IMG/VR virus record: IMGVR_UViG_2660238511_000011
Length of the DNA: 16,143 nt
From: a virus
Lineage: Duplodnaviria; Heunggongvirae; Uroviricota; Caudoviricetes
Strand: one strand, 5' to 3'
A program made the position numbers and the translations under genes. The notes beneath the pieces are model-generated. The model ran no database searches, was not told the origin of the DNA, and saw nothing but the letters and a program-made list of their open reading frames with translations. Position 1 is the first letter of the stretch; each line of letters starts with the position of its first letter. Below are positions 7,765-8,922 of this stretch, one piece after another.

Positions 7765-8094
7765 TTAATCGTCGTCTTCCGGCAGTGCCAGAATCTTGAT
7801 CGCGTTCGAATCCACCACGCCACCGCCTAAATATTTTTGCGTGAAAATTTTGATGAATCCTGGTTCTGTCAGGTTGTCCGGTCTGGTGCGAACACCTGTT
7901 TCGTGATCAACAATGTAGTAACCGCGTTTGAAGTCACCCAGGGCAATAACGTTATCAGGCATAAACTCCAGATATTCGACCGGAAGGCCCAGCAACGTAT
8001 CAGGATCACCCGCCTGTAAACGGTCGCGCCAGATATAATCACCGTTCGCGTTCTTCACCTTCTGAAGTTTTGCCGCCGTCGTGGAGTTAACCAC
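7765..8094 (-). CDS. Major capsid protein (HK97 fold), C-terminal fragment downstream of an in-frame TGA
   Basis: Same frame as ORF 8095..8970. Translation VNSTTAAKLQKV...TLLGLPVEYLEFMPD continues the capsid protein. Confidence 0.8.
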   Translation of the reverse strand: MVNSTTAAKLQKVKNANGDYIWRDRLQAGDPDTLLGLPVEYLEFMPDNVIALGDFKRGYYIVDHETGVRTRPDNLTEPGFIKIFTQKYLGGGVVDSNAIKILALPEDDD

Positions 8095-8922
8095 TCAGAC
8101 CGCGTTTTTGCGGTATTTTTTACGTAATGCAAATTTCAGGTCGATCAGCGGGTCCGCAGATGTCCACGCCAGAGATTCGGAAGGTTTAATTACCTGCAAC
8201 GTACCAAAATCACGCTCTTTGTCGTTCTTCTCTGCACGGGGTACGGATAAAAAACCTTTTGCTTTTTTGTCACCGTCGCCCACAACCAGATCGCTTTCTT
8301 CGGTTTCCGTGAAGGTGTCGCCAATCTCACCCGTCAGCCATGAAAGGATGTCCACATCGGAAAAATCCACGATTTCCTGTGTGGTGCGCGGGTACGCATA
8401 GACCGGATACAGCTTAATGCTCACCTCGTTAATCTGCGGGGTGCTGGTCTGTTCGCGTGCCTTACCCTCTTCACCGTGGTTAACGGTCGCACCGCCAGCG
8501 GAAACAAGCTGCTTAAACTCGTTGCTGCTGATTTTCTTCACGGTACAGATGCGACGCATGGTGGATTCATCCGCCAGCATTCGCATGATTTCGGTGTTCA
8601 GTTCAGGGATAACGGTATAACCACCATCAGCGGGAACGCCTGTACTTAATGCGCGGGTTTCACCGGTCAGAATGTAGTTGCGTAGTTCTGCGGGGTCAGT
8701 GGTCTGGCTGCTTTTACCTGGCTTGCTGCGCTCTTCGTCTGCAATGGCTTCAAGGCGGGAAATGTCTTTATCGAGGGATTCAGCTTTAGCGCGTAATTCG
8801 TCAAATTTTGTGCCCTCAGCATCGTTAAGACTGCGGTTTTCTTTTTCAGCGTTCTCCAGCATGTCGCGCATCTGATTTTTAATGGCGGTTTTCTGCTGGC
8901 GTAATTCGATTATTCTCTGCAT
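8095..8922 (-). CDS. Major capsid protein (HK97 fold), N-terminal about 275 codons, ending at an in-frame TGA (8095-8097)
   Basis: N-terminal coiled-coil delta-domain-like region (MQRIIELRQQKTAIKNQMRDMLENAEKE...) followed by the capsid core. The likely start is the ATG at 8922, with an AGGA ribosome-binding site 8 nt upstream. The ORF track start at 8970 lies inside a terminator hairpin. Confidence 0.8.
   Translation of the reverse strand: MQRIIELRQQKTAIKNQMRDMLENAEKENRSLNDAEGTKFDELRAKAESLDKDISRLEAIADEERSKPGKSSQTTDPAELRNYILTGETRALSTGVPADGGYTVIPELNTEIMRMLADESTMRRICTVKKISSNEFKQLVSAGGATVNHGEEGKAREQTSTPQINEVSIKLYPVYAYPRTTQEIVDFSDVDILSWLTGEIGDTFTETEESDLVVGDGDKKAKGFLSVPRAEKNDKERDFGTLQVIKPSESLAWTSADPLIDLKFALRKKYRKNAV

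Follow-up and report, generated by a model that had tools for sequence, protein, structure and literature searches.

An inherited nonsense codon in the major capsid gene of a cf-PICI phage-satellite island of Shigella flexneri

[quoted passage not shown] In PICIs, alpA is the induction gene. The prototype of the family, EcCIEDL933 of E. coli O157:H7, packages its DNA solely into PICI-made small capsids. When the packaging genes of EcCIEDL933 were mutated one by one, replication was unaffected, and transfer was abolished for all of them except hypothetical gene 1792, for which it was severely reduced. The capsid protein of this island (gene 1786) has been modelled by cryo-EM (PDB 9GYI): it adopts the HK97 fold and loses its N-terminal part by cleavage, it overlays HK97 gp5 at about 1 Å RMSD, and 240 copies of it build a 47.5-nm T=4 shell. 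The same O157:H7 island has long been known as CP-933C, O-island 51 (OI-51) or Sp7, and the OI-51 LEE regulator RgdR (ECs1581) acts in the regulation of type III secretion (PMC3378721).

We analysed a 16,143-nucleotide stretch of viral DNA (IMG/VR record IMGVR_UViG_2660238511_000011), referred to here as the window. Judged by its flanks and gene content, we assign the window as the S. flexneri copy of a cf-PICI, the counterpart of EcCIEDL933, located between roxA (ycfD) and phoQ. The phoQ gene, at 1..1461 on the plus strand, forms the chromosomal flank of the island in the window, and the S. flexneri loci are flanked by roxA and phoQ in the same way as the O157:H7 island. On the minus strand, the island encodes a tyrosine integrase (14914..16143, 409 aa, intact in the window lineage), an AlpA-type regulator (14351..14539, 62 aa), an intact DUF4222 protein (12374..12673, 99 aa, with 82% identity to its DUF4222 counterpart in the O157:H7 island) and a D5_N/DUF5906/Pox_D5 primase-helicase (10629..12377, 582 aa), with small ORFs lying between the last of these and the capsid gene. 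The distance from the integrase to the last island ORF before phoQ (2258-2539) is about 13.9 kb.

All eight genes of the packaging module are recognisable and stand in the canonical order, with damage in the capsid gene and terS. Besides these two, the minus strand carries a full-length prohead protease (Peptidase_S78; 7153..7725, 190 aa, 97.9% identity to the O157:H7 copy), a full-length portal protein (5940..7151, 403 aa), a head-closure gene (5545..5943) that is interrupted by a 22-N scaffold gap and is an intact 112-aa gene in the near-identical locus L005, a head-tail connector (5249..5545, 98 aa), an HNH endonuclease of the packaging module that was identified by Pfam and by comparison with O157:H7 (4809..5249, 146 aa), and a full-length large terminase, terL (2553..4214, 553 aa). 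No tail or lysis gene was found among the called genes of the near-identical loci L004-L009 or in the annotation of the O157:H7 island, and the window goes straight from the last island ORF to phoQ. An initial annotation, made from the sequence of the window alone, had described the element as an island with its own capsid; the packaging module and the match to EcCIEDL933 bear this description out.

The capsid gene is split. Translation of window positions 8922-7765 on the minus strand gave, in one frame, 275 sense codons, a TGA, 109 sense codons and a terminal TAA, and the sequence around the stop reads AAA AAC GCG GTC TGA GTG GTT AAC TCC. The in-frame TGA is capsid codon 276 (8095..8097, minus strand, read from 8097 to 8095), and the next codon is GTG at 8094-8092, in agreement with the claim of the initial annotation that two ORFs of the same frame are separated solely by a TGA at 8095-8097 with a GTG directly after it. 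The ORF list gives the two pieces as 8095..8970 and 7765..8094. The former entry uses an upstream GTG at 8970 as its start, as chosen by the mechanical ORF list; the capsid orthologues begin at the ATG at 8922 and have 385 aa. The N-terminal fragment consequently spans 275 codons from this ATG (8098..8922, minus strand), and the C-terminal fragment consists of 109 codons and the TAA (7765..8094, minus strand), for which gene callers place the start at the GTG at 8094.

Both fragments matched the PF05065 (Phage_capsid) profile, which has 280 positions and a cut-off of 24.2 bits: the N-terminal fragment scored 102.6 bits over positions 1-166, and the C-terminal fragment scored 84.7 bits over positions 169-278. 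Because these stretches of the profile adjoin each other, the two pieces make up the contiguous halves of a single domain, and their juxtaposition is not due to chance. When Trp was restored at codon 276, the protein matched chain B of 9GYI over residues 1-385 (E 1e-252, about 98% identity), which places it in close similarity to a solved HK97 fold. The two halves of PF05065 and this full-length match together uphold the earlier proposal of a single HK97-fold capsid gene of about 385 residues. By homology with EcCIEDL933, the N-terminal fragment would hold the delta domain, N-arm, E-loop, G-loop and connector loop. The frame for a complete subunit is interrupted by the TGA at codon 276, and the locus is a pseudogene of the HK97-fold family PF05065, not a working member of it.

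Codon 276 is TGG in three E. coli orthologues (L001, L002 and L010), from which the window and the S. flexneri loci L003-L009, with TGA, differ by a single G>A transition on the coding strand, that is, C>T at plus-strand position 8095. The exact 61-mer with TGG was present in 301 of the 355 complete E. coli genomes that carry the stretch; the exact 61-mer with TGA was found in none of 349 complete E. coli genomes with the stretch. The TAG version likewise had no exact match in complete E. coli genomes, and a TAG allele in E. coli was rejected on this ground. Distant relatives retain Trp at this position ("KNAVWVTNS", "KNAVWTMNS"), and residue 276 of 9GYI is also Trp. As judged from these comparisons, the ancestral codon is TGG (Trp276). 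The initial annotation had named TGG, CGA or GGA as single substitutions that would restore the frame and had proposed a search for the residue conserved among orthologues: TGG proved to be the ancestral state in the E. coli orthologues, and the conserved residue was Trp in L001, L002, L010, 9GYI and the distant relatives.

A nonsense mutation and a base-call error had both been offered as explanations of the stop. If the TGA were a base-call or assembly error in a poor draft, the gene in the real genome would be intact, and the window is indeed a scaffolded draft with two N runs, as had been noted earlier; it has three mismatches relative to L005 in about 30 bases beside the 124-N gap, and its 22-N gap is surrounded by an artificial duplication of 41 bp. 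Both runs (4561-4684 and 5640-5661) are, however, more than 2.4 kb away from the capsid stop, and an artefact should not recur in independent related assemblies. The exact TGA-containing 38-mer had one match among species-representative genomes. It lies in S. flexneri SFBU1023, on a complete chromosome, at a locus that is 99.875% identical to the window over 8 kb; the 10 scattered SNPs over this distance indicate a related but different strain. Six more S. flexneri loci (L004-L009), of which three come from complete chromosomes, had the TGA without exception, so that the identical base was seen in seven independent S. flexneri loci in total (L003-L009), four of them from complete chromosomes. 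Furthermore, the exact 275-aa and 109-aa products were each found on at least 1000 contigs with S. flexneri names in NCBI, ENA and Logan assemblies, and the 275-aa product was indexed in 1821 collection blocks, 11 of which hold contigs longer than 1 Mb. An intact 385-aa S. flexneri allele, in either version, was absent from a collection of about 15 billion proteins. With the stop reproduced in this manner, the chance that it is a sequencing or assembly error is close to nil, and of the two explanations only the nonsense mutation stands.

The N-fragment variants T38 and A38 and the C-fragment variants A304 and T304 each occurred on at least 1000 contigs, and the stop was common to three S. flexneri haplotypes (A38/A304, T38/A304 and T38/T304), which indicates that it predates the split of these haplotypes. 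The stop appears fixed in S. flexneri as far as these sequences extend. The nonsense mutation is genuine: it is ancestral to no fewer than three S. flexneri haplotypes, and the E. coli orthologues examined lack it.

The two N runs were resolved by comparison with L005, which is contiguous and near-identical. The 124-N run (within window 4537-4684) corresponds to just 61 bp in L005, and the three mismatches in the approximately 30 bases beside it suggest a low-quality contig end. In window 5599-5702, the same 41 bp (cgctggcggggcgtgtactgaatatcatcgggcagccgctg) occurs on both sides of the 22-N run at 5640-5661. On this evidence, the contig ends at 5640-5661 are read as overlapping ends that were joined with Ns and not merged, by which the head-closure gene looks longer than it is and interrupted. 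IS insertions hidden in the N gaps were considered and ruled out by the 61 bp that L005 has at the 124-N run and by the 41-bp contig-end overlap at the 22-N run.

By alignment with E. coli islands, which delimits a terS (small terminase) remnant at 4198..4528 on the minus strand, the packaging module is seen to carry a second fixed lesion that the initial annotation did not report. A 97-bp deletion, with its junction at 4528|4527 (14269|14270 in L005) and CCCCGCC microhomology at its bounds, takes away the start of terS, with its ATG and first 9 codons, and about 70 bp of the intergenic DNA before it. The first in-frame start left is a GTG at 4509, which gives 103 aa versus 118. The window shares this deletion with each of the three S. 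flexneri loci that were aligned (L004-L006), and three E. coli islands do not have it. Extra island damage was observed in some sublineages (L006, L007 and L009; approximately 2004-3235, 5907-6201 and 14561 in locus coordinates), in the form of a 1-bp deletion that splits the integrase and an IS1 transposase fragment in the regulatory/replication region. A change of terS Glu97 to a stop was found in L007 and L009 only.

Among the S. flexneri haplotypes, codon changes in the packaging module numbered 10 nonsynonymous (one of them nonsense) versus 2 synonymous, as compared with 23 nonsynonymous versus 87 synonymous in the same module of two E. coli islands (Fisher p = 3e-5 against S. flexneri). 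The other island genes showed 5 nonsynonymous versus 3 synonymous changes among the S. flexneri haplotypes, and the nonsynonymous excess may partly reflect the weakness of purifying selection in Shigella in general, a genus in which nonsense mutations and prophage decay are commonplace. The capsid stop and the terS deletion aside, the packaging genes have their full length in the window lineage, which makes the decay either recent or slow.

Of the stop codons of E. coli, UGA is the leakiest, with low basal misreading by tRNA-Trp, and because Trp is the ancestral residue, such misreading would recreate the exact wild-type capsid protein. Some residual full-length protein may be made in this way, with nothing to suggest more than basal leakage. 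A stronger version of this reading holds that the UGA is read through, either by near-cognate tRNA-Trp or by dedicated recoding, at a level that supplies enough capsid for mobility and perhaps down-tunes capsid expression; that the other head genes are full length in the window lineage would be in keeping with it. The 61 bases around codon 276 are nevertheless identical to those of the TGG orthologues apart from the stop base, which argues that no recoding signal has co-evolved with the stop. The stop is followed by G, which does not make for a particularly leaky context. A stretch of 74 nt beginning at the stop folded no better than shuffled sequences (z = -0.87), no Rfam family was found in a search across the window, and a tRNA search across the window also returned none; by these searches, no selenocysteine insertion or readthrough signal, SECIS-like hairpin, suppressor tRNA or Rfam element was found. 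Nor is the stop conserved across orthologues, as programmed recoding would have it: the complete E. coli genomes gave the TGG counts described above, with no TGA or TAG match, and the distant relatives have Trp.

Other evidence also weighs against productive readthrough, since a T=4 shell requires 240 subunits, terS is without its start codon, and the later lesions and the nonsynonymous excess point to lost constraint. We regard readthrough or recoding that sustains mobility as very unlikely. There is an equally slim chance that the UGA allele is maintained, through tRNA-Trp misreading, as a low-output, mobilisable cf-PICI, or that the truncated fragment is kept because it serves some other purpose, for example interference with HK97-like phages that enter the cell.

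Adjoining stop and start codons can permit termination-reinitiation in bacteria, and the UGA and GUG are directly adjacent here. Termination at the UGA with re-initiation at the adjacent GUG could, in principle, give pieces of 275 aa and 109 aa that assemble non-covalently into a working HK97 fold. However, no Shine-Dalgarno-like sequence is present upstream of the capsid GTG, and this GTG (codon 277) is an ordinary Val codon in every intact capsid orthologue. The adjacency of UGA and GUG came about through the accidental change of one base and is not an architecture that has been conserved. The loss of the terS start, the later lesions and the nonsynonymous excess speak against a split capsid just as they do against readthrough, and the capsid gene is broken at different places in other lineages. 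A functional two-piece capsid is improbable in the extreme, and inherited decay of the gene is the reading that we retain.

The breaks in those other lineages were compared at the DNA level. C-terminal capsid fragments of 109-112 aa that begin at one and the same place are found both in E. coli and in relatives further off, and a recurrent stop at codon 276 was considered as their origin; it was rejected on the DNA of L011, L013 and L015. In L011, an E. coli-type copy from a Logan assembly, an upstream frameshift is present and Trp276 is intact. In L013 (2471-2473) and L015 (1174-1176), a different in-frame stop lies 8 codons upstream of the conserved Trp, and the lineage of this type is 73% identical and was found on 23 contigs. 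Restarts of gene callers at codon 277 or 278 account for the common length of 109-112 aa. In other lineages, too, cf-PICI-like elements have had their capsid genes broken, by independent events. A further 109-aa fragment with an E. coli-type C-terminus and the same GTG start (P0018) was observed on 17 contigs, the longest of 5.3 Mb; it may stem from a stop at codon 276 or from a lesion upstream.

Taken together, it is highly probable that the window island is a decaying, capsid-defective cf-PICI with a real inherited nonsense mutation. Its course can be proposed as follows. A change of TGG (Trp276) to TGA has been inherited vertically in S. flexneri, and translation would end after Val275 to leave a 275-residue product without the last 109 residues, which make up about 39% of the Pfam capsid domain. 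Such a truncated capsid protein would not form the 240-subunit T=4 shell that the island needs for its own packaging, and the island would not spread further as a satellite particle. The packaging module is drifting as a pseudogene cluster, in which the terS start has also been deleted and to which sublineages add IS1, the integrase frameshift and the terS nonsense codon. Helper-induced formation of small capsids and transfer are predicted to fail for the window island, because both its capsid gene and terS are broken and the EcCIEDL933 packaging mutants do not transfer. The earlier suggestion that the island is defective for its own capsid is in agreement with the published knock-outs of the EcCIEDL933 capsid gene, which is about 98% identical.

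We found no description of the S. flexneri capsid lesion in the literature, in which papers only list S. flexneri among the carriers of cf-PICI-like elements; the split capsid ORFs have stood for years in public S. flexneri annotations under generic names. The stop is ordinary decay of a known phage-satellite island and involves no new mechanism, and it has little importance beyond annotation. For annotation, the two ORFs should be merged into a single capsid pseudogene (W276*) and not be listed as two "bacteriophage proteins", and satellite censuses should count the S. flexneri island as a defective cf-PICI. The case shows how a satellite family recognised only lately decays after being stranded in a pathogen of restricted host range, and it provides a natural capsid-null, terS-damaged allele that can be repaired to test mobility. 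The retained DUF4222 regulator, which is possibly RgdR-like, and the intact integrase are candidate reasons for the persistence of the island.

As compared with EcCIEDL933, the window island occupies the same site between roxA (ycfD) and phoQ and has the same order of genes (int, alpA, replication genes, capsid, protease, portal, head closure, connector, HNH, terS and terL), and those packaging proteins that can be compared at full length are 96-100% identical to the O157:H7 ones. The window copy differs in the capsid change W276* and in the loss of the terS start through the 97-bp deletion, and whereas EcCIEDL933 is mobilised by phages HK106 and HK446, the window copy is predicted to be non-transferable. 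The islands also differ in replication, with a D5_N primase-helicase in the window and a RepA-family helicase in the O157:H7, O103 and 14EC001 islands; the presence of D5_N or RepA at the same position reads as the swapping of a module between islands that are nearly identical elsewhere. The window also lacks most of ssb and perC. Just the first 25 codons of ssb are left at approximately 9572-9750 on the minus strand; where the O157:H7 island has about 622 bp (the remainder of ssb plus the whole of perC), the window has about 104 bp, a change that could be a deletion or a mosaic replacement. As for the DUF4222 protein, the O157:H7 gene shares its length (99 aa) and its island (OI-51) with RgdR (ECs1581), and it is this correspondence that suggests a possible RgdR-like nature of the window protein.

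In capsid proteins of the HK97 gp5 type (PF05065), the delta domain at the N-terminus is cleaved by a neighbouring Peptidase_S78 prohead protease, as it is in the cf-PICI capsid. Capsids of the HK97 gp5 type form a T=7 shell, whereas the intact cf-PICI orthologue forms a T=4 shell and the window copy has an interrupted frame. Among the solved relatives, the capsid of the Rhodobacter capsulatus gene transfer agent (6TB9, 6TBA) has Phe at position 276 where cf-PICI capsids have Trp, both residues being aromatic. In Shigella, a fixed nonsense mutation followed by small deletions, IS1 insertions and frameshifts is the usual pattern of genome reduction, and the window island follows the same pattern of pseudogene formation and prophage decay, with a fixed single-base nonsense change and then small deletions, an IS1 insertion and frameshifts in sublineages. 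It does not differ in kind from ordinary Shigella decay, and it is particular solely in that a cf-PICI is the element in decay.
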